Of a stretch of DNA of 64,000 bases, positions 2 through 22,094 are shown piece by piece; the first letter of the stretch is position 1; every line of letters starts with the position of its first letter. Made by a program: the position numbers and the translations under genes. The notes beneath the pieces are model-generated. The model saw only the letters and a list, made by a program, of their open reading frames with translations. It searched no databases and was not told where the DNA came from. Source of the stretch: Spirochaetia bacterium. GTDB taxonomy: Bacteria; Spirochaetota; Spirochaetia; SZUA-6; Bin103. Where the stretch lies: NCBI GenBank assembly GCA_965208575.1, contig CBDBOV010000006.1, forward strand, positions 800,001 to 864,000, in the 5' to 3' direction.

Positions 2-1249
2 CTCGGCCTTTTCAGGATTATAGGTATATTCTTGCTTGACCTCGTCGGGCCACTCTGCATATGGCCAGGACCACCCGGTAGAACTTTGATGTACGTACCC
101 ATAAGGTGCTGGATCTCCCAACCCCTTGAAGTAGGTAGCGGAGATTGTCTCTCGGTCCACTGCCATCTGCAGTGCCTTGCGCACATTGAGGTCGGCAGTT
201 ATGGCAGGCGAGGCCACGTTCATGTACAAAACACCCGATGCAGGGTTGTAAACCGGCCACACGTCGATTTCAGGGCTGGTCTTCTGGAGGCTCTCCAAAT
301 CGTCGATAGATGTAATATACGCGTCGCCGACGTTACCCATCATGTCAACCTTACCCGTGCGCAGTGCCGCCAGACGTGCTGACATGTCCGGCATAAGGAG
401 GGACCTCAACTCATCAATATAGGGTAGGCGGTTGTCCGGGAATTTTTCGTCGTAGCCCCAGTAGTCAGGATTCTTCTGCCAGGTTGCCGAGCTACCCTCC
501 ACGAATTCTGTCAGTCTCCAGGGCCCGGTGCCGACCAGGTTTCTCCAGTTCTTGGCATCGCCGTACTCCTCGATTTGCTCAGGGGCGTGCACAAAAAAGT
601 AGCCGTTGAGAAATTTCCCGAGCACATCGAGGTGAGGCTTCGTCAGCTTAATCTCAACCGTCCATTGGTCGGTGGCCGTTACCGATTCGATACCTACACC
701 GCCGACGACCGCACCGACCGCGGCGTTCGGTCCGTCTTCGGTGAAATCGCCCAGACCGAAATAGCGGTGAAAGTTCCATTCGACGTCATCGGCATCGAAC
801 TGCCGACCGTTCATCGGCGCCTTGTCATGCCAGTGAACGCCCTGGCGGATGTTCCAGATAAACGTTGTGTCGTCGGGCATTGACCAGCTTTCAGCCAGAG
901 CCCCGGTAGTCATCTCCGGGGTCACAACGGAGTAAATTCTACCGTTCCATATGTCCCTGGATAGTCCCCAGTCGGCGAATGCGAGCCTTTCAACAACGCC
1001 ACCGATGAGGTGAGGCGCCCAGCCAAGATTCCACCAGTTGTCAGTACTCGGAGGAAAGACCGTAACGGCCGACGTGAGTGTCCCGCCATACTGTGGCGCG
1101 GTCCACGTCATGCCGGTGGCGGGGTCGAACACCGTTTCCTTCTCGGTAGCCGCCGCCGGCGCCTCTTCTGCGCCAGCGGCCCAGAGGCCGGTGGCGGTCA
1201 GAACGAGGACCAGTGCAACCACGAAGGTGGTGACTGTTACAATATTCAT
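2..1249 (-). CDS. ABC transporter substrate-binding protein, family 5 (Dpp/Opp-like); 3' end runs off the window
   Basis: Manually translated from ATG at 1249 (MNIVTVTTFVVALVLVLTATGLWAAGAEEAP...PQYGG...LAESWS...GVHWHDKAPMNGR...LVGTGP...KNPDYWGYDEKFPDNRLPYID...VRKALQMA). Open to the window edge; paralog of 16403-18208. Not in the ORF track because it has no stop in the window. Confidence 0.93.
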   Translation of the reverse strand, partial: MNIVTVTTFVVALVLVLTATGLWAAGAEEAPAAATEKETVFDPATGMTWTAPQYGGTLTSAVTVFPPSTDNWWNLGWAPHLIGGVVERLAFADWGLSRDIWNGRIYSVVTPEMTTGALAESWSMPDDTTFIWNIRQGVHWHDKAPMNGRQFDADDVEWNFHRYFGLGDFTEDGPNAAVGAVVGGVGIESVTATDQWTVEIKLTKPHLDVLGKFLNGYFFVHAPEQIEEYGDAKNWRNLVGTGPWRLTEFVEGSSATWQKNPDYWGYDEKFPDNRLPYIDELRSLLMPDMSARLAALRTGKVDMMGNVGDAYITSIDDLESLQKTSPEIDVWPVYNPASGVLYMNVASPAITADLNVRKALQMAVDRETISATYFKGLGDPAPYGYVHQSSTGWSWPYAEWPDEVKQEYTYNPEKAE

Positions 1250-1271
1250 ACGTAACTCCGTAGCTGATTTC

Positions 1272-1428
1272 TGAGAGTATTGCGTAGCGCCGTGCCGCTC
1301 CCTGGCTACTCTCGCGCCCGCAACGCGGGCGGCCGGCCAGACAGAGTCGAATTTGTGAAGCGCGCGGCGTGGGACTCACCGGGTACACGCCGCGCGCGCG
1401 TGCGGTTCTTTCAGTATCATCCTGCACC
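1272..1428 (-). ncRNA. Candidate structured 5' leader (copy A) of SBP gene
   Basis: Reverse complement aligns colinearly with 16213-16380, also upstream of an SBP gene. Conserved stems: GCGCGCGGCGTG/CACGCCGCGCGC, CGCCCGC/GCGGGCG and GAGAGTA/TACTCTC. Confidence 0.55.
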
Positions 1429-1531
1429 CTTGGGGCGCGGCCGCCGGAGGACACGGCGAACCCCAGTGAACCGTATGCTCACACGCGCGGGCAAACGTGT
1501 CAACCACACGCCCGACGCGGTGCCCGGGCCA

Positions 1532-13767: not shown

Positions 13768-15528
13768 TCACCGCTGCACGGCGTCGGAGTACACCATCTC
13801 CCAGCCGTGGAACACCACGATCAGGCCGATGAAGCGCACCCCCGGATACTGCCGCGCCAACCGCTCGTCCGCCAGGTAGCGCAGGAGTTGCGCCCGCGCC
13901 TCCTCGGCCGCCGTCGTCACCGCGGCCTGATCCGCGGACTCGGAACGCGCGCGATACTTGAGTTCGATCAGGTAGCCGCGCTGCAGGTGTGGATAGCGAG
14001 CCACCAGCGGTTCCAGCGCGATGTCGGCGTGCCCCTTGCCCAGCTCCACCTCGGAGCGGAACACGTAGTAGTCCGCCACGCTCAGGTAGGCGGCCAGGAA
14101 CCCCTGTATTACCTTCTCGCCGCCGATGTAGTCGCGGATCCCGGTCTGCCGCGCGACCGCCTCGCTCAGGAACTCCAGCACCGGCCGCCACTCGCCCTCG
14201 GTGGCCATCCGCAACATCAACTGCTCGAACCGGAACAGGTTGATCGAAAACACCTCCACGTCGCGGTAAGCGTCGCGCAGGAAGCCGTACATCAGCCGCT
14301 TCACGGTCTGGTTCGGAATCGCCAGCCGCGGCATCATGCCCTGCACGTCGCGGATGCTCAGCAGCCCGAAGTAGTGCATCAAGGACAGGAAGTTCTCCGG
14401 CTCGGAGAGCTCCGCCAGCGGAAAGCCGGGCGTGATGCGGGTGTCCACCTGCTCCTCGCCGATGACGTCGCGCAGCAGGTCGAAGTTGCCGTTCAGTTGC
14501 CGGCCGGTCACCAGCAGGTGGCGCAGCTTGCCGTAGTCGATGCGCACGTTGGTGTCGATCAGGTACTCCGGCACGTCACGGTTGGGCATGGAGTGCTTCA
14601 GGTAATAGAGCACCATGTCGGAGTTGTACAGATCGGTGTCGGCGGTCGTGGCGAACCGGTAGCCATTGTACCACTGGCCCATGATGCCCATGGCGGTAGC
14701 GACCTCCTGGTTGAACACGCCCAAGTCCCGATAGGTCTCGACCAATTGTCGCACCTCCGGCTCGGTGAAGCCGACCATCTCGTTGAAGTCCGGTTCCAGG
14801 CTGATGTTGGTGCCGATGTTGAAGCCGCTGGTCACGTCGTCCATGGTGACCGGCGACACGCCGGTGATGAACAGGCGCTCCAGGCCGCCGCCGGTGCGCC
14901 CCGCCCCGGACTTCAGGGTGGCGAAGAAGTTGCGGTAGAAGCCGCCGCCGCCGTGGGTGAAGGAGTGGAACGCCTCCGCGCCGTGGTACGCGAGCACGGT
15001 GTTGGCGAAGTTGTCGTACTCGTCGATGATCACGTACAGTGGGATGTCGTGGTCGCCCGCGTAGCGGAACAGCTCTGCCAGCTTGCCGGCGATGGAGGGC
15101 GGCGCCAGGATGTCCCGCATCGCCGTTTCGGGAAACAGGTCGGGATGACGCCGCAGTGTCCCGCGGAGTTCTATCAGACAGTAGGTTTCGAACTCTCGCT
15201 CCAGGGTGTCGAGCGCGTCGTTGACGTTTGAAAAGTCGAAGCGCAGGGTGACGTAGCGGCTCTGTTCCCCGGTCGGATGCTGCCCGATGTCTGTGCCGGC
15301 GAAAGTGGCGTCGAAGCCGTCCGCCCAGAAGCGGTCGTAGTAGTTCTCCAAGACCGACGCCCAGAGGGACTTGCCGAACCGGCGTGGACGGATCAGGAAG
15401 GCGTAGCGCTCCTCCTCCAGGCGGCGCAGGAAGGGGGTCTTGTCGACATACAGCCACCGGTTCAGGCGGATACGCCTGAAGTCGGCCTCGCCGTAGGGAA
15501 TGCGCGGGTGCGTGGGTGGCGTGCTCAC
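13768..15528 (-). CDS. AAA-ATPase-like protein with C-terminal PD-(D/E)XK nuclease domain
   Basis: IPYGEADF, YVDKT, RPRRFGKS (Walker A), IIDEYD (Walker B), WYNGY, IPN, and C-terminal GHADI...LIELK. Confidence 0.9.
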   Translation of the reverse strand: MSTPPTHPRIPYGEADFRRIRLNRWLYVDKTPFLRRLEEERYAFLIRPRRFGKSLWASVLENYYDRFWADGFDATFAGTDIGQHPTGEQSRYVTLRFDFSNVNDALDTLEREFETYCLIELRGTLRRHPDLFPETAMRDILAPPSIAGKLAELFRYAGDHDIPLYVIIDEYDNFANTVLAYHGAEAFHSFTHGGGGFYRNFFATLKSGAGRTGGGLERLFITGVSPVTMDDVTSGFNIGTNISLEPDFNEMVGFTEPEVRQLVETYRDLGVFNQEVATAMGIMGQWYNGYRFATTADTDLYNSDMVLYYLKHSMPNRDVPEYLIDTNVRIDYGKLRHLLVTGRQLNGNFDLLRDVIGEEQVDTRITPGFPLAELSEPENFLSLMHYFGLLSIRDVQGMMPRLAIPNQTVKRLMYGFLRDAYRDVEVFSINLFRFEQLMLRMATEGEWRPVLEFLSEAVARQTGIRDYIGGEKVIQGFLAAYLSVADYYVFRSEVELGKGHADIALEPLVARYPHLQRGYLIELKYRARSESADQAAVTTAAEEARAQLLRYLADERLARQYPGVRFIGLIVVFHGWEMVYSDAVQR

Positions 15529-15772
15529 TACCGTACCGTACTGACTCTATCGCCTCCAAGGTGCGACGCGCAATCGAGCCGCCAAGGGCGGCACGGTCAC
15601 TCTGCGAAACGGACGACGACGGCCGGTCGGTTGCGTCCGCCGAGTCCGCGCGCGCTTGACACCTCCAGGCGCGCGTGAAACGATGACTACGTCAAGGATT
15701 GAACGGATGTGGATCATGAGTCATCACGACCGACTGCATAGTAACCGGTCGGCAGTGACGCAGCCGGCGCAT

Positions 15773-15793
15773 CCCCCCCCCCCCCCCCCCCCC
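15773..15793. repeat. C21 homopolymer (G21 on the minus strand)
   Basis: Counted directly; intergenic. Confidence 0.9.
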
Positions 15794-16212
15794 GGGTCGG
15801 GCGGACAACTACTTGAATCACAAGCAATAATCGCTCAGGCTGAGCGCTCTGCGGCCTTCGTCTTCAGCTTCCGCGTAGCGGCCCGCTACCTGTTGTGCCG
15901 CCTCAGTCCACGTTCGCTCACCGGCCGCGGCAACGGTCAGGGACCCCCGTCCGCTGAACCGCGGCATCTTTTCCCGTCGCGCTGCTCGAAATTCCTCAAA
16001 TGCGCGCTCCAACGCACTCGACCCGCCCTCCGGGCGCAGTGTCCGAGCCGCGTCCTGGTGGCGTGGATTCTCCACCGCCCGGCTACTCAAGGAACGCGTG
16101 GCCGAACATACCCCCATCTACGCCTCACCGCTTCTACGCAGGCTACGCTGCCTGACTCCGGGACCTCATGGGTCGCGAGCAAACACCCTGCCGGCGTTCC
16201 CGGCGCACGCGA

Positions 16213-16380
16213 GGTGCGAGTCATACTCAAAGAACCACTCCCGCGCGCGGCGTGAGCCCGGGTGAACCCGGTGAGTCACACGCCGCGCGCTTCAGGAAGT
16301 TGACTCTTATCTGGCTGGCCGCCTGCGTTGCGGGCGCGAGAGTAGCCACGGAGCGACAAGTCGCTCCCCAATACTCTCAA
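16213..16380 (+). ncRNA. Candidate structured 5' leader (copy B) of SBP gene
   Basis: Homologous to 1272-1428 (minus strand). Stems 16243-16254/16279-16290, CGCCTGC/GCGGGCG, GAGAGTA 16338-16344/TACTCTC 16372-16378, inner GGAGCGAC/GTCGCTCC. Confidence 0.55.
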
Positions 16381-16402
16381 CATTCCATCGAAGGAAGACA
16401 CG

Positions 16403-18208
16403 ATGAAGATATTCTTCACCCGGACTTTCGCGGTTGCGGTAGTCCTGGTGCTGACCGCAACCGGCCTCTGGGCCGCCGGCGCAGAAGAGGCGCCGGCAGC
16501 CGCCGCCGACAAGCAGTATGTGACCGACCCCACCACCGGCAAGGTGGTGTCCGCGCCAGAGTATGGCGGGACAATAACCTACGCGCTATCAACAGACCTT
16601 CCGGGACCTGACACCGTGCTCACTGGTGGAGCGGCGGCTCACTCCGCCGGTCCCGTTGTAGAGAAGCTGGGCGCCGCAGACTGGGCAGCTCCCAGGGACA
16701 TGTTCTCGTTCAACATCTATGAACTCAATATTCCTGCTAACACGAGAGGGGTGCTGGCGGAGAGCTGGTCGCAACCCGACCCACTGACGTATATCATCAA
16801 AGTCCGCCAGGGCGTTCACTGGCATGATAAGGCACCGATGAACGGCCGGGAGCTGACTGCCGAGGATGTCGAGTACAACTTTCATCGTATGGTGGGTATA
16901 GGTAGCGGTTTCACCGAGAAGAGCCCTATGGCTTATAGCTTCCGAGCTGGGGAATTCGACTCGATAACGGCCACCGACCAATCGACGGTTGTTTTTAGGA
17001 TGAACAAGCCCCGCCTCAGTGCGCTGGCTTCTATCCTCGACGACTGGTCTGCCTGGATATATCCCCCCGAGGTGATCAAGGAACACGGGGATGTTTCGGA
17101 TTGGAGAAACCTCGTCGGAACCGGACCCATGATGATGACTGGCTGGACCAAAGACAGCTCTCGCACCTATGAGAGGAATCCGGACTACTGGGGCTACGAC
17201 GAGAAATACCCCGAGAACCGCTTGCCCTACATTGACCGGCTGAGGGGCCTGGTTATGCCCGAAGTCGCAACACGAACGGCTGCACTGCGCTCGGGTCAGG
17301 TTGATTACGTAGGTGCGCTCGGCTTAACTTCATTGAGGAATCTCGACCAGGTAGAGAGCCTCCAGCGCACCAACCCCGAAATCCTGATATCGTCGTATAC
17401 GTTTCGGAATGATGGTGCTGTTGGGTTGAACGTTCAGCTAGAGCCCTTTGACGACATCAGAGTGCGCAAGGCCATGCAGATGGCAATAAACCTCGATGAA
17501 ATCAACAATTCCTACTTTGGAGGGTTTGGAGATACGACGCCTCAGGGGAAGGTAAGCAGGTCTTATACAGCGGCTGTCACCCAATTCGAAGATTGGCCCG
17601 AAGATGTCAAGAAGGTCTTTGACTACGACCCGGAAGGTGCCGAAGCGTTGCTTGATGAGGCCGGTTATCCTCGCGGCGCCGACGGTATCAGATTCAAGAC
17701 CAGGTTCTTGCATCTCGAGCGGTACGATTTGAACTATACGCAATTGATCACTTCATACTGGAACAAGATTGGCATCGATGTAGTAGACATTGCGGTAGAA
17801 CCATCACCTGCATTTGGCGCCAGAAGAACTGCCAAGGATTACGAACTGATCAATCACGAGTTGGCCAACTATGGGGATCCCATAAACCACATGACGCATT
17901 ATTCGAATCGGGAGAGCAACCCATACGGGGCGCATTCCAATGTCAACGACCCCGATTATGAGGCCATGCTTGAGGCTGCCGAAGCCGCTACCACTATTGA
18001 GGAGCAGCACAGGTTAGTTCGAGAGTTGAATCAATATGGGATTGAGAAGTTCTGGATGATATGGACTCCTAATGGTCCACAATTCAACGCGATCCAACCG
18101 TGGATCATAGGTTTCAACAACGAAAACTGGATGGGTAACGGTCAAGTCCTGGTAGTGTTCACCCGTCTGTGGATTGACCAGGATCTGAAGACGGAGATGG
18201 GTTATTAG
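16403..18208 (+). CDS. ABC transporter substrate-binding protein, family 5
   Basis: Signal ...TGLWAAGAEE; PEYGG, LAESWS, GVHWHDKAPMNGRE, LVGTGP, RNPDYW, VRKAMQ. Confidence 0.94.
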   Translation: MKIFFTRTFAVAVVLVLTATGLWAAGAEEAPAAAADKQYVTDPTTGKVVSAPEYGGTITYALSTDLPGPDTVLTGGAAAHSAGPVVEKLGAADWAAPRDMFSFNIYELNIPANTRGVLAESWSQPDPLTYIIKVRQGVHWHDKAPMNGRELTAEDVEYNFHRMVGIGSGFTEKSPMAYSFRAGEFDSITATDQSTVVFRMNKPRLSALASILDDWSAWIYPPEVIKEHGDVSDWRNLVGTGPMMMTGWTKDSSRTYERNPDYWGYDEKYPENRLPYIDRLRGLVMPEVATRTAALRSGQVDYVGALGLTSLRNLDQVESLQRTNPEILISSYTFRNDGAVGLNVQLEPFDDIRVRKAMQMAINLDEINNSYFGGFGDTTPQGKVSRSYTAAVTQFEDWPEDVKKVFDYDPEGAEALLDEAGYPRGADGIRFKTRFLHLERYDLNYTQLITSYWNKIGIDVVDIAVEPSPAFGARRTAKDYELINHELANYGDPINHMTHYSNRESNPYGAHSNVNDPDYEAMLEAAEAATTIEEQHRLVRELNQYGIEKFWMIWTPNGPQFNAIQPWIIGFNNENWMGNGQVLVVFTRLWIDQDLKTEMGY

Positions 18209-18238
18209 GGGGTTCGCCCTCCTGATTTCACTTAGAAT

Positions 18239-18297
18239 GGAGCTGGGAAAGCGCGCGCTTCCGAGCGGCTTCCGAGCGCCGCTCCCGGCTCCTTTTT
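18239..18297 (+). terminator. Hairpin with T5 tail between SBP and permease
   Basis: GGAGCTGGGA...TCCCGGCTCC followed by TTTTT. Confidence 0.55.
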
Positions 18298-18316
18298 CAT
18301 TGCGTAGGGTGTCCGC

Positions 18317-19279
18317 ATGAGAGCCTATATCATTAGGCGGTTGTTGCTGATCGTGCCGACGCTGTTCATTTTGAGCATCCTGGTCTTTCTCTCGGTACGC
18401 TTCATCCCCGGCGATGTCATCGACGTCCTGATCGGCAGGATGGCAACGTTCAATGTGCAATGGGACGTAGACCGTGAAGCTCTCGAGCGAATGCTGGGAT
18501 TGGACGTGCCTGTCTACGTGCAGTATGGACGCTGGATAGGAGGTATCATCCTGGACGGCAGCCTTGGCGAATCCCTGTTTACCAGAGACTCGGTGGAACA
18601 GGCGATATTGGAGAGACTGCCGGTCACCCTTGAGCTCGGTTTCATGGCAATCTTCATCGGGCTCGTGATCGCGCTGCCGGTGGGCATCTACTCGGCGATG
18701 CGCCAGGATACCGCAGCCGACTTCCTGGGGCGCTCGGTCGCCATCATCGGTCTGGCCACGCCGAACTTCTGGCTCGGCATCATGGTCATGATCTACCCGA
18801 CCATCTGGTGGGGCTGGGCGCCGCCGCTGGAGCTGGTTACTTTTCCAGAAGACCCGCTGGGCAATCTGGCGGTGTTCATCATTCCCAGCCTGATTCTGGG
18901 TACCGCCGCGGCTGCCGGCACCATGCGGATGACGCGCACCATGATGCTGGAGGTGCTGAGGCAGGATTATGTCAGGACGGCTTGGTCGAAGGGTCTGAAG
19001 GAGCGTGTGGTCGTCATGCGCCACGCGGTCAAGAACGCACTCATCCCGGTGGTGTCGCTGATCGGCCTGCAGTTGCCGATCCTGGTGGGGGGCGCCGTGA
19101 TCATGGAGAACATCTTCAACCTGCCGGGCCTCGGCCGTCTCTTGCTGAGTGCCCTCAATGAGCGAGACTATCCGATGGTCTCCGGAATCAACCTGTTTTT
19201 CGCCGCTGGGGTGGTGGTGATCAATCTGCTCATCGACGTGCTCTACGCGATCCTCGATCCCCGGGTCCGCTATGACTGA
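18317..19279 (+). CDS. ABC permease, DppB/OppB-like
   Basis: YIIRR...IPGD; EVLRQDYVRTAWSKGL; LDPRVRY. Confidence 0.95.
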   Translation: MRAYIIRRLLLIVPTLFILSILVFLSVRFIPGDVIDVLIGRMATFNVQWDVDREALERMLGLDVPVYVQYGRWIGGIILDGSLGESLFTRDSVEQAILERLPVTLELGFMAIFIGLVIALPVGIYSAMRQDTAADFLGRSVAIIGLATPNFWLGIMVMIYPTIWWGWAPPLELVTFPEDPLGNLAVFIIPSLILGTAAAAGTMRMTRTMMLEVLRQDYVRTAWSKGLKERVVVMRHAVKNALIPVVSLIGLQLPILVGGAVIMENIFNLPGLGRLLLSALNERDYPMVSGINLFFAAGVVVINLLIDVLYAILDPRVRYD

Positions 19280-19358
19280 GTTGTTTCACACGCTGGTCAA
19301 AGCGAAGCCGTGGAGCGTCATCGCCGGGCTGGTCGTCAATGCCCTGGGGGCGCTATGA
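19272..19358 (+). other. 28-codon mini-ORF; diverged duplicate of the downstream permease N-terminus
   Basis: MTELFHTLVKAKPWSVIAGLVVNALGAL* versus MTEFLTRLVKEKPLSIVAGVVIM; overlaps both neighbouring genes. Confidence 0.6.
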
Positions 19359-20230
19359 CTGAATTCCTTACAAGGCTGGTCAAGGAGAAGCCACTGAGCA
19401 TCGTCGCCGGGGTGGTCATCATGTTGTTGATCCTGGTGGCGATCTTTGCCGATGTTCTGGCCCCGTACCCGCATGACGAAGTCAACATCGTGGACCGGAT
19501 GCAGCCGCCCTCCAACCGGTATCTGTTGGGCACCGACCAGTTGGGGCGCGACCTGCTCAGCCGCCTCGTGTTCGGCGCCCGGATTTCGCTGACCGTCGGC
19601 TTGGCGGCGACCACGGTCAACGTCGTGGTGGCGGTGCTGATCGGCGGCATCTCGGGATTCTTCGGCGGCAGACTGGACCTGGCGATGCAGCGCTTCGTCG
19701 ACGCCTGGATGGCGTTCCCGGGCCTGCTGCTGTTGCTCACCATCATGTCGCTGGTGGGGCGGGGGCTGCCGCAGATCATCGTGGTGCTGGGGGTAACGGG
19801 CGGCATCGGCGGCTCGCGAGTGGTCCGCGGCGCGGTGATCGGCGTCAAGGAGAATGCCTACTTTCAGGCGGCCGAGGCGATCGGCGGCACCCGGTGGAGA
19901 ACCCTGATCCATCACGTCCTGCCCAACATCGCGGCTCCGGTGATCATCATCTTCACCATCAACGTGGGTGGCGTGATCATCAGCGAGGCTGCGCTGAGCT
20001 TCCTGGGATTCGGGCTGCCGATCTCGGTGCCGAGCTGGGGCGGGATGCTGAGCCGGGAAGGGCGCGAGTTCATGGAGGTGGCGCCGCGGCTGGCGCTGTG
20101 GCCGGGGCTGTGCCTGACGATTGTCGTGTACTGCCTGAACATGTTCGGCGACGCGGTGCGCGACCTGCTCGACCCGCGGCTGCGGGGCGGCGGCGGCCGT
20201 CTCGGCGCCGATCGCGCTGCGTCAGTGTAG
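19355..20230 (+). CDS. ABC permease, DppC/OppC-like
   Basis: LGTDQLGRD, YFQAAEAIG, PSWGGML, FGDAVRDLLDPR; start taken at ATG 19355. Confidence 0.94.
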   Translation: MTEFLTRLVKEKPLSIVAGVVIMLLILVAIFADVLAPYPHDEVNIVDRMQPPSNRYLLGTDQLGRDLLSRLVFGARISLTVGLAATTVNVVVAVLIGGISGFFGGRLDLAMQRFVDAWMAFPGLLLLLTIMSLVGRGLPQIIVVLGVTGGIGGSRVVRGAVIGVKENAYFQAAEAIGGTRWRTLIHHVLPNIAAPVIIIFTINVGGVIISEAALSFLGFGLPISVPSWGGMLSREGREFMEVAPRLALWPGLCLTIVVYCLNMFGDAVRDLLDPRLRGGGGRLGADRAASV

Positions 20231-20546: not shown

Positions 20547-22094
20547 ATGACGCGACGACGGCTGCCCATCGGCATCCAGACCTTCCGCGAGTTGCGCGAA
20601 GAGGACTGCTACTACGTGGACAAGACCGGCTACATCGATCGGCTGCGCCACGAAGGCAAGCATTATTTCCTGTCGCGCCCGCGGCGGTTCGGCAAGAGCC
20701 TGTTCCTGGACACGCTGAAGGAGCTGTTCGAAGGCAGCGAGGAGCTGTTCGCGGGGCTCTACATACACGACCGCCACGACTGGTCGGAGCGCCATCCGGT
20801 GGTGCGGCTGAGTTTCGGCGGCAGCAGCTTCACGGAGCCCGCACATCTGCACGCCAACGTGCTGGCGCAGTTGGAGGGGGCGGCGGAAGAGCACGGTGTG
20901 AACGTGCGCTACGCCACTGCGCCGGAGCGGTTCGCGCATCTGCTCAGGACTGTGCACGCACGCGCCGGGCAGCGCGTGGTGGTGCTTGTCGACGAGTATG
21001 ACAAGCCGATCCTGGACGCGCTGGAGACGCCGGAGGTGGCGCGCGCCAACCGCGGCTATCTGCGCGGGCTGTACGGCGTGATCAAGGACAGCGACGCGCA
21101 CGTGCGGTTCGCGTTTCTCACGGGCATCAGCAAGTTCTCGAAAGTCAATCTCTTTTCGCAACTGAACAACCTCACCGACATCACGCTGGATCCGGTGTAC
21201 TCCTCGATCTGCGGCTACACGGAGGGTGACCTGGAGACGGTGTTCGCCCCGGAACTGGCCGGCCTGGATCGAGAGCGGGTACGCGAGTGGTACAATGGCT
21301 ATAGTTGGCTGGGCACGGAGAAGGTGTACAACCCGTACGACGTGCTGCTGCTGTTTCGCCGCCGCAAGTTCGCCGCCCACTGGTTCGAAACCGGGACGCC
21401 GGCGTTTCTGGTGGACACGCTGTTTCAGCGACGGGTGGCGTCGGTGTCACTGGACCAGAAGGTGAGCACGGAGGAACTGCTGTCGACGTTCGACGTAGAC
21501 CGAATCGGCACCGAGGCGTTACTGTTCCAGACTGGCTACCTGACGATTACGGGGGAAGAGGAACTGGGCGGGGAGGCGCTGTATCGGCTGGGCTATCCGA
21601 ACCGGGAGGTGCGGCAGAGTCTGAACCGGGTGCTGCTACGCCATCTCGTGCAGGACGCGGAGGGGCAGACGGCCAACAGCATCCGCCTGGCGCGACTGCT
21701 GGATGCGCACGACTGCACCGGCCTGAAGGAACTGTTCCACGCCTTCTTCGCGAGCATTCCGTATCAGTGGTACACGAACAACCACATCGCCGACTACGAG
21801 GGCTTCTACGCGAGCGTGTTCTACTCCTACTTCGCCGCGCTGGGGTATGAGATCGCGGTGGAGGAATCGAGCAGCCACGGGCGGCTGGACATGGCGGTGC
21901 GCACGAGCGGGCACGTGTACCTGTTCGAGTTCAAGGTGGTGGAGATGGCGCCGCCGGGGTCTGCGTTGGCGCAACTCCAGAGCCGGGACTACGCGGCCAA
22001 GTACCGTCACTTGAACGAACCGATCCACCTGGTCGCCGTGGAGTTCAGCCGCGAGACGCGCAACGTGACGGCGTTCGAGGTGGCCGACGGCTGA
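20547..22094 (+). CDS. AAA-ATPase-like protein with PD-(D/E)XK nuclease domain
   Basis: LPIGIQTF, YYVDKT, SRPRRFGKS, LVDEYDKP, WYNGY, YNPY, YPNREV, GRLDM...LFEFK. Confidence 0.92.
   Translation: MTRRRLPIGIQTFRELREEDCYYVDKTGYIDRLRHEGKHYFLSRPRRFGKSLFLDTLKELFEGSEELFAGLYIHDRHDWSERHPVVRLSFGGSSFTEPAHLHANVLAQLEGAAEEHGVNVRYATAPERFAHLLRTVHARAGQRVVVLVDEYDKPILDALETPEVARANRGYLRGLYGVIKDSDAHVRFAFLTGISKFSKVNLFSQLNNLTDITLDPVYSSICGYTEGDLETVFAPELAGLDRERVREWYNGYSWLGTEKVYNPYDVLLLFRRRKFAAHWFETGTPAFLVDTLFQRRVASVSLDQKVSTEELLSTFDVDRIGTEALLFQTGYLTITGEEELGGEALYRLGYPNREVRQSLNRVLLRHLVQDAEGQTANSIRLARLLDAHDCTGLKELFHAFFASIPYQWYTNNHIADYEGFYASVFYSYFAALGYEIAVEESSSHGRLDMAVRTSGHVYLFEFKVVEMAPPGSALAQLQSRDYAAKYRHLNEPIHLVAVEFSRETRNVTAFEVADG

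Follow-up and report, generated by a model that had tools for sequence, protein, structure and literature searches.

A candidate cis-acting 5' leader with a short upstream reading frame and a predicted pseudoknot precedes many uptake operons in one genus of spirochaetes

Genes and features of the locus

The stretch of DNA analysed here, referred to as the window, comprises 64,000 nucleotides of contig CBDBOV010000006.1 (positions 800,001 to 864,000 of the forward strand) from the Spirochaetia bacterium assembly GCA_965208575.1. At 16213-16402 on the + strand it carries a structured 5' leader, which directly precedes an operon of the ATP-binding cassette (ABC) uptake type encoding a family-5 binding protein (PF00496, E = 8.8e-63) and two permeases (both PF00528). 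A second leader of the same kind lies on the - strand at ~1430-1250, again in front of a binding-protein gene. The elements of both leaders, including the helices P1 to P5, the candidate pseudoknot PK1 and a short upstream reading frame, are listed in Table 1.

The two leaders are colinear, with a mean column identity of 83% over 343 columns including flanks and signal peptide, whereas the binding proteins behind them share just 49% identity across 418 residues. The initial annotation of the window had pointed out this contrast, and every stem and loop element that it listed was found again in both copies. Its overall reading of a conserved, structured sense-strand leader of an expanded set of uptake operons has held; the -10 box and the alternative pairing that it proposed in addition have not, as described below.

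P1 encloses an optional hairpin, P1a, and the conserved loop GGUGAGUCA; the loop varies in length among copies, with GGUGAGUC kept. The 3' arm of P2 has the consensus GCCAG and reads GCCAC in the window copy, where the last pair is consequently mismatched. The hairpin 5' of the first Shine-Dalgarno-like site is common to subsets of copies only, and the upstream blocks vary among copy subfamilies; this hairpin may either be the one nearest the 5' end of the transcript or mark where the upstream unit stops.

Table 1. Positions of the leader elements and adjoining genes in the window
Feature	Position	Strand	Details
Upstream hairpin GCCGG-CGUUC-CCGGC	16190..16204	+	Sequence; directly 5' of Shine-Dalgarno-like site
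Shine-Dalgarno-like GAGGU of upstream reading frame	16211..16215	+	Consensus AGGAGGU, 5-6 nucleotides before start
Upstream reading frame, 11 codons + stop	16220..16255	+	Family consensus MILKEPHARAA*; UGA 16253-16255 at P1 apex
P1, 12-base-pair stem	16243..16290 (16243-16254 with 16279-16290)	+	96-97% of cells pair
P1a	CCGGG 16258-16262, loop UGAA, CCCGG 16267-16271	+	3 pairs changed on both sides; missing in some copies
PK1, candidate pseudoknot	16273..16306; loop GAGUC(A) 16273-16278 with (U)GACUC 16301-16306	+	Complementarity
P2	16315..16349; CUGGC 16315-16319 with GCCAC 16345-16349	+	88-94% of cells pair
P3, hairpin CGCCUGC-GUU-GCGGGCG	16320..16336	+	95% of cells pair; 4 pairs changed on both sides; many sense-strand U-G
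P4	16338..16378; GAGAGUA 16338-16344 with UACUCUC 16372-16378	+	4 pairs changed on both sides
P5, inside P4	GGAGCGA 16350-16356, loop CAAG, UCGCUCC 16361-16367	+	Sequence
Shine-Dalgarno AAGGAAG and ATG (16403) of binding-protein gene	16391..16405	+	Sequence
Operon behind leader	16403..20230	+	Binding protein 16403-18208, permeases 18317-19279 and 19310-20230
Second class A copy	1250..1430	-	P1 1397-1386/1371-1360; P2 1340-1336/1306-1302; P3 1331-1315; P4 1313-1307/1279-1273; P5 1301-1284
Upstream reading frame of second copy	1420-1376	-	ATG, 14 codons, stop in GGUGAGUC
Shine-Dalgarno of second copy	1259-1256	-	Sequence
Binding-protein gene behind second copy	2..1249	-	Extends beyond window
Candidate sigma-70-type promoter of second copy	1475..1503	-	TTGACA, 17 nucleotides, GAGCAT; ~47 nucleotides before upstream-frame ATG; loose pattern match

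Copy number and operon context

In the genome from which the window derives (G000; 6.5 Mb, 67% G+C, 95% complete), a blastn search with a 190-nucleotide query found 61 copies of this leader, called class A below, and an nhmmer profile gave 63 matches. Almost every copy lies directly 5' of an open reading frame (ORF) of ~600 residues with a near-constant signal peptide. The genome holds 200 family-5 binding-protein-like ORFs, ~115 of which form a close subfamily; by a distance rule 59 of the 200 bear the leader, and two more were missed by this rule owing to long open frames. A permease ORF follows within 3 kb on the same strand behind all 54 full-length class A genes, and each leader therefore heads a whole uptake operon. 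The leader thus belongs to an expanded family of uptake operons, as had been proposed from the two copies in the window, with ~61 copies instead of two.

The uptake system is greatly amplified in this genome, with 365 permease-like ORFs beside the 200 binding-protein-like ones. No binding-protein gene follows two leader fragments (G000 C3:637081-636953 and C4:527332-527372), which represent truncated or orphan copies.

A short upstream reading frame in the leader

Seventy-six distinct class A sequences from eight genomes (E <= 1e-20) were aligned with a covariance model of the nested helices (R1). An AGGAGGU sequence stands 5-6 nucleotides before a start codon, which is ATG in 52 sequences, GTG in 7, TTG in 4 and CTG in 3, that is, NTG in 66 of the 76. 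The frame that follows comprises 11 codons (MILKEPHARAA and a stop) in 57 of the 76 sequences, with the UGA stop at the apex of P1, and copies with a short P1 loop stop at the next in-frame UGA, within the conserved GGUGAGUC. The second copy in the window has a longer frame because its P1 loop is short. At the start position of the window copy the sequence is GUC (16220-16222), and an in-frame GUG is located at 16214-16216.

Nucleotide changes in the frame were counted as the minimum on a tree built from the remainder of the leader. In codons 4-6 (Lys, Glu and Pro) these tree-aware counts were 5, 2 and 28 at codon positions 1, 2 and 3, respectively (binomial p = 2e-8), and in the start codon they were 16, 6 and 5. 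The pattern of third-position changes points to a translated frame that is under selection on its peptide.

RNA structure and covariation

Two alignments were used to examine the predicted helices. The first contained 53 full-length copies from the window's own genome, aligned by MAFFT alone, with pair counts made on the 52 distinct copies; the second was the eight-genome alignment of 76 sequences, which is fitted to the nested helices by construction, with P2 and PK1 lying outside the covariance model. RNAalifold predicted only P1 and P3 from the first alignment. The remaining helices were written by hand, and all seven (P1, P1a, PK1 and P2-P5) were assessed by pair counts against shuffled alignments and slid controls.

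In the own-genome alignment 90.8% of the cells were paired, and 17 of 43 pairs had changed on both sides, compared with 7.6 +/- 1.9 in shuffled alignments (0 of 500 as high) and 8-12 in slid controls. The corresponding values in the eight-genome alignment were 93.2%, 20 of 49 pairs, 8.1 +/- 1.9 (0 of 500) and 6-12. For P2 and PK1 together, 92% of the cells were paired and four pairs had changed on both sides (9 of 500 shuffles as high). These sequences are paralogues or close kin, and their leaders recombine; the shuffle counts are not probabilities.

P2 crosses P4, its 3' arm directly adjoining the 5' arm of P4, an arrangement that makes the two an H-type pseudoknot. PK1, the second candidate pseudoknot, had 89-95% of its cells paired and two pairs changed on both sides, its columns having been set on another reference row, with the window copy atypical there. 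In the window copy alone, the mutated start region (16219-16224) creates a second GAGUCA, which in the minimum-energy fold pairs in nested fashion with UGACUC (16301-16306) and competes with PK1. Both strands of PK1 (GAGTC at 16273-16277 and GACTC at 16302-16306) are also GANTC sites, for which a role in DNA methylation is conceivable, and two rows of the alignment (L004 and L026) keep GANTC yet break the PK1 complementarity.

G-U pairs are plentiful on the sense strand only (29 + 29 in P3 and 23 in P5, of 76 sequences), and they correspond to A-C mismatches on the other strand. The U-G and G-U pairs in P3 and P5 point to an RNA of the sense strand. The folding energy of the 195 nucleotides at 16211-16405 was -85.8 kcal/mol, compared with -67.1 +/- 4.0 kcal/mol for 200 shuffled sequences (z = -4.63; 0 of 200 as low), and the minimum-energy fold of the window leader recovers P1, P1a, P3, P4 and P5.

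A second class of leaders with the same pseudoknot plan

Close paralogues without a class A leader carry other leaders. One of these, termed class B, has 24 copies in the same genome according to an nhmmer profile, which was adopted over a regular expression that found 12. From 5' to 3', class B leaders consist of a 5' arm CCCUCGC, a variable hairpin, CGAGAGUG, immediately followed by the 3' arm GCGAGGG, then GG..GGCA.. and CACUCUCG, which lies ~20 nucleotides before the ribosome-binding site. The sequence of class B differs from that of class A, with the P2/P4 pseudoknot plan kept.

Twenty-five rows, namely the 24 copies and the leader of an orthologue of the window gene in another genome (locus L093 in G001), were aligned with MAFFT. 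In the crossing helices 87% of the cells were paired, and 28 double-change cells were counted against 9.6 +/- 3.6 in shuffled alignments (0 of 500 as high) and 2-10 in slid controls. P4 covaries in class B too, as does the counterpart of P2, CCCUCGC/GCGAGGG. The 3' half of class A, with its P2/P4 pseudoknot, is thus common to class B.

Ten of the 24 class B copies begin with a strong Shine-Dalgarno sequence and an ORF of only 1-3 sense codons (M*, MSM*, VKK* and similar), and one further copy has TTG-TAG as its start and stop. Four of the 24 have a Shine-Dalgarno sequence with no NTG in range.

Conservation and exchange of the leader among paralogues

Conservation was expressed as mean pairwise identity over 820 pairs of 41 paralogues. 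It amounted to 0.82 in the leader core, 0.53 in the spacer from the core to the ATG, 0.72 at four-fold sites of the first 36 codons (the signal peptide), 0.58 at four-fold sites of the mature protein (chance 0.28) and 0.46 for the amino acids of the mature protein. By these measures the leader core appears as an island of conservation and not merely a young duplicate. The initial annotation had named two outcomes that would speak against a functional leader, conservation no higher than at synonymous sites of the signal peptide and a lack of covariation in a larger alignment. Neither was observed: the core stands at 0.82 vs 0.72 for those sites, and covariation exceeded the shuffled and slid controls in both alignments.

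The mature binding proteins are 46% identical, and four-fold sites at their shared residues 58%, a fast divergence of the proteins relative to silent sites. It may reflect diversifying selection on ligand specificity.

The orthologue of the window gene in G001 (88% identity) has a class B leader and a different N-terminus. When window positions 16403-16500 were compared with L093:501-600, the DNA was alike only from inside the signal peptide onwards, in the hydrophobic region at CTGACCGCAACCGGCCTCTGGGC. Since the likeness starts only there, leaders have been swapped among paralogues by recombination in that tract, which explains why identity between leaders is uncorrelated with identity between proteins (r = 0.05). 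The family therefore documents the exchange of a 5' cassette within a conserved signal-peptide tract.

This organisation resembles the vsp and vlp lipoprotein cassettes of Mycoplasma, in which a near-constant 5' untranslated region and signal peptide are joined to fast-diverging mature parts with recombinational exchange. In contrast to those systems, each copy here has retained a cassette and an operon of its own, neither inversion nor a single expression site was observed, and the products are transport proteins and not surface antigens.

Distribution of the leader

When 101 genomes were searched with R1, at most 24 candidates being scored per genome, matches were found in eight, the window's own genome and seven of the 10 others of its genus; there were none in the 13 genomes of the sister genus and none in the rest. 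A strict pattern covering both leader classes gave 30, 39, 20, 55, 18, 3 and 1 matches in G000, G001, G003, G005, G006, G007 and G008, respectively, and 0-1 in the other 94 genomes, with 0-2 for reversed-pattern controls. Members of the binding-protein subfamily (E <= 1e-60) numbered 117 in G001, 26 in G007, one each in G009 and G010 and none in G011. Both leader classes were found in one genus only, and their copy numbers follow the expansion of the binding-protein family. The single-copy gene of G009 has a plain promoter (TTGACG-N17-TACGGT) and a leader of ~45 nucleotides; the G010 locus (L212), for which the region upstream of the gene was not included, was left out.

R1 also matched 12 of 80 binding-protein homologue loci, 10 of them on chromosomes labelled Spirochaetia and two on short contigs labelled 'Candidatus Tectimicrobiota' (L149) and 'bacterium RHO3_bin_31' (L119). 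Homologues at 58-63% identity without the leader also occur in metagenome-assembled genomes (MAGs) labelled Dehalococcoidia, Acidobacteriota and others.

Seven loci (L097, L104, L109, L130, L131, L149 and L159) encode binding proteins 41-63% identical to that of the window and come from MAGs labelled Dehalococcoidia, Gammaproteobacteria, Acidobacteriota, Tectimicrobiota and Chloroflexota; L149, under the label 'Tectimicrobiota', bears a class A leader. The homologues under foreign labels may reflect transfer among co-habiting symbionts or mis-binning.

Transcript and promoter evidence

Logan contigs of four runs from four sponge metatranscriptome studies (>=90% likeness) cover the leader and the gene behind it. 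In two runs the depth was 0 at 15900-16142 and 4-12 on the unique part of the gene at 16629-16709; in the other two it was ~10-30 vs 62-96, and summed depths over the leader mix many paralogues. Contigs that reach 16242 run on upstream as ...ATGATACTCAAAGAACCG, and P1 and the upstream reading frame therefore lie in RNA-library contigs, which break at the repeated leader, give no start, strand or level and may include DNA.

A strict sigma-70 pattern, derived from promoters before other leaders of the same genome, occurred within 150 nucleotides upstream of only one of 53 class A copies. Looser matches were located 60-90 nucleotides upstream of five copies, including TTGACA-N17-GAGCAT at 1503-1475 (-) before the second copy of the window. 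The promoter scan found no promoter-like site at 16150-16240.

The initial annotation had taken an nATACT word, followed by AAAGAACC, for a -10 hexamer. This proposal failed a sigma-70 test, which asked for A at position 2 and T at position 6 of the hexamer together with either a -35 box 16-18 nucleotides away or a TGn extension in register: in addition to the empty scan of 16150-16240, the -35 region was variable and the second position of the hexamer was G in 10 of the 76 sequences. The word consists of the last letter of the start codon and codons 2-3 of the upstream frame, and it is better read as part of a frame led by a Shine-Dalgarno sequence. A wider explanation at the DNA level, with GATACT as a -10 box, the P1 palindrome as an operator and the RNA stems absent or irrelevant, is very improbable. 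GATACT does fit TATAAT at four of six positions, P1 is a perfect inverted repeat, and only one of 53 copies has a strict sigma-70 match upstream. However, no -35 box stands at 17 nucleotides from the supposed -10 box, which has G at an essential position in the 10 sequences mentioned; third-position periodicity is seen downstream of it; the G-U pairs of the sense strand would turn into A-C mismatches in DNA or on the opposite strand; the RNA contigs contain ATGATACTC and P1; and class B leaders keep the Shine-Dalgarno sequence and start codon without GATACT.

Comparison with known RNA classes and regulatory devices

Searches against Rfam 15 gave no match at the gathering score in the whole window. 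At E <= 10 the region 15900-16700 yielded only mir-3017 (E = 0.54, on the opposite strand over the palindrome) and Scr6925 (E = 8.7), and thus no match to the glycine riboswitch, which the initial annotation had singled out for comparison. Twenty leaders (eight class A and 12 class B) had no match at E <= 1 among the 4227 families, and no account of the leader was found in the literature searched at the level of titles and abstract openings. The leader is a new, genus-restricted family that fits none of the canonical attenuator and riboswitch designs tested.

A structured, covarying domain in a 5' leader, as is general for riboswitches, is present here. The SAM-II, preQ1-II and fluoride riboswitches likewise place a covarying H-type pseudoknot in the 5' leader of transport genes, whereas the present leader matches no Rfam family, has very few invariant unpaired positions and occurs in one genus. 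Either the P2/P4 module or the P1 domain might conceivably serve as an aptamer, its small-molecule ligand signalling a global state and switching all these operons together. In keeping with such a metabolite riboswitch, the pseudoknot plan shows both conservation and covariation, both classes share a few unpaired letters (GG after P2, and GGCA), and the element is invariably found ahead of transport operons, in their 5' leader. We nevertheless consider it rather unlikely, given the absence of an Rfam match, the confinement to one genus and the finding of no expression platform. P3, P5 and the P2-P4 loop are unconstrained or absent in some class B forms, which leaves few invariant unpaired positions. 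A perfect 12-base-pair stem such as P1 is also unusual in aptamers.

The leader shares more than one feature with translation attenuators of the ermC and cat-86 type, in which a leader-peptide coding region led by a Shine-Dalgarno sequence forms one arm of a hairpin and a ribosome on the leader remodels the RNA. The short frame overlaps the first arm of P1 in the same manner, with its stop at the P1 apex in the 57 sequences noted above. Unlike in ermC and cat-86, constrained folding of five copies found no alternative pairing that would free the ribosome-binding site of the main gene, and no alternative helix hiding that site was found. The leader is also far longer, with two candidate pseudoknots, and precedes uptake rather than resistance genes in ~61 copies per genome.

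A small conserved upstream frame with selection on the letters of its peptide is likewise found in the trp, his and pheST attenuators and in the arrest peptides TnaC, SecM and SpeFL, and in TnaC a stop codon is placed at a structural element. In contrast to attenuators of this kind, MILKEPHARAA contains no run of regulatory codons and no repeated residue save Ala, and no terminator hairpin with a U-tract follows; P1 is followed by CUUC or GUCAC and not by a U run. T-box leaders offer a precedent for one cis-acting architecture repeated before many related operons. They differ in their specifier and tRNA logic, which has no counterpart here, and the 61 plus 24 copies in 6.5 Mb are more than for T-box leaders; the present copies also head paralogous operons and have spread by duplication and recombination.

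Several alternative pairings were tried and rejected. The initial annotation had proposed that ACUCU may pair alternatively with AGAGU to give two conformations, and no support for this was found. Pairing of UACUCUC with GGAG of the main Shine-Dalgarno sequence fails for sites of the AAGGAAG type, and ACUCUC cannot pair with the GGAAG-type sites of many copies. A pairing of AUACUC (codons 2-3 of the upstream frame) with GAGAGUA did not co-vary in copies with a changed P4.

Possible roles as stabilisers or docking sites

Genes for three ribonucleases and one RNA-binding protein were searched for in the 95%-complete genome. RNase Y is present (G000 C5:760620-762131, 665 bits); no match was obtained for RNase J (TIGR00649) or for RNase E/G. 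CsrA (PF02599) had no match, and a CsrA-bound leader was rejected as a candidate.

The leader may instead be a constitutive expression and stability cassette, in which a ribosome loaded near the 5' end and stable hairpins protect a long-lived, highly translated mRNA, and which was duplicated and homogenised by gene conversion without responding to any signal. This is unlikely but merits some weight, for both classes have a strong Shine-Dalgarno sequence with a tiny frame, leader and signal peptide are exchanged together between orthologues, identity is also elevated at four-fold sites of the signal peptide (0.72), RNase Y is present, and the single-copy relative in G009 has only a plain leader of ~45 nucleotides. 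Stabilisers of the STAB-SD type have a Shine-Dalgarno-like element close to the 5' end of the transcript; a strong AGGAGGU is present here and might lie in such a place. A classical STAB-SD protects against the 5' exonuclease RNase J, and the model that joins the two is weakened by the lack of an RNase J match. In addition, selection on Lys-Glu-Pro would be needless for mere loading of a ribosome, the spacer within the cassette is not homogenised (0.53), and covarying pseudoknots exceed a protective hairpin in complexity.

A factor that acts in trans, whether protein or small RNA, might dock on the conserved P4 sequence, the P1 loop or the C/A-rich spacer, and would unite the operons in one regulon. 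GcvB-type control acts on binding-protein mRNAs and provides a precedent; P4 (GAGAG/CUCUC) and the loop GGUGAGUCA retain their letters and not only their pairing, and a shared input to ~85 operons with diverged binding proteins would suit a global regulator. This explanation, which we judge unlikely, leaves the coding-type evolution of the upstream frame unaccounted for; no candidate factor was identified, and CsrA was not found.

Proposed mode of action

The explanation that we favour, and hold to be probable, is that the element is a lineage-specific, multi-copy, cis-acting 5' leader in which translation of the upstream frame is coupled to folding of the RNA and sets expression of the operon post-transcriptionally. 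Confidence is high in what the element is, which draws on its copy number, operon link, pairing at the RNA level, coding-type evolution of the frame, lack of an Rfam match, restriction to one genus and cassette exchange, and low in how it acts. From 5' to 3' the leader consists of a strong Shine-Dalgarno sequence, an 11-codon frame whose 3' half is the 5' arm of the GC stem P1, the candidate PK1 loop, and the P2/P4 module with P3 and P5, which ends ~20-25 nucleotides before the ribosome-binding site of the operon. A ribosome on the upstream frame would have to melt P1 and cover the 5' strand of PK1; in those class B leaders whose frame lies near the 5' arm of P2, that arm would be covered. Because the ribosome would open P1 and cover PK1, translation of the frame and folding of the leader would be mutually exclusive. 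Such coupling would give all operons that bear the cassette one common post-transcriptional setting, responsive to the state of translation, and the output might be translation efficiency, mRNA lifetime (through decay by RNase Y) or both.

Several observations weigh against this proposal. Ten of the 76 sequences have no NTG start, the window copy included. Neither an intrinsic terminator nor a helix sequestering the Shine-Dalgarno sequence, that is, no expression platform, was found, and there was no terminator-like site on the + strand at 15600-16450, hence none after P1 or P3. A hairpin over the Shine-Dalgarno sequence and AUG (P6, CAUACG/CGUAUG) was rejected as it is found in some subtypes only, with 57.6% of its cells paired and 55 of 500 shuffles as high. 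A fold switch was likewise rejected, because P3-P5 and the ribosome-binding region were unchanged in five copies when the upstream reading frame was blocked in silico. PK1 appears to rest mostly on conserved sequence, with scant covariation, and 29 of the 76 sequences have a mismatch at the second pair of P5. The missing correlation between leader and protein identity counts here as well, and leader swapping implies that concerted evolution adds to, and inflates, the conservation. To these come the kinship of the sequences behind the shuffle counts and the nature of the Logan contigs, as described above.

The 29 copies with the P5 mismatch have GCUAC for GCUCC, which gives a G-A mismatch in P5. 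This GCUAC can pair with a GUAGC that spans the junction of P4 and P2, and a possible alternative fold may result.

A more specific version, to which we give little credence, has the conserved leader peptide (Met-Ile-Leu-Lys-Glu-Pro...) act as the sensor. On sensing a small molecule or the condition of the translation apparatus, the nascent chain would stall the ribosome, either at Lys-Glu-Pro or on the UGA in the apex of P1, and so keep P1 and PK1 open and reset the P2/P4 pseudoknot. If so, one signal would be read ~60 times per genome, or ~85 times with the class B start-stop variants, and the regulon would consist of copies of a cis-acting sensor and not of targets of a trans-acting regulator.

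If the leader works by coupling of upstream translation and RNA folding as proposed, a single RNA device would govern ~85 ABC-uptake operons in one genome, which is unusually many for a cis-regulatory RNA. It would also show how a symbiont living on organic matter derived from its host or from sea water can expand its transporters by duplication under common control. The hosts of the element are uncultured sponge-associated spirochaetes of one genus, and its output is a proposal only. With ~300 copies in six genomes, in two classes and with or without a start codon, the family is a natural mutagenesis series for the interplay between translation of the frame and the pseudoknots.

Neighbouring genes and upstream repeats

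The window operon is flanked by two genes, at 13768-15528 (-) and 20547-22094 (+), with AAA-ATPase_like (PF09820) and PDDEXK_9 (PF08011) domains. Tandem short repeats occur far upstream in other binding-protein leaders, as units of CTACCCGA and 10-base units of CTCCGTCCTG; they are located at L093:45-100 and, in G000, at C6:513-523 kb and C3:649-662 kb.

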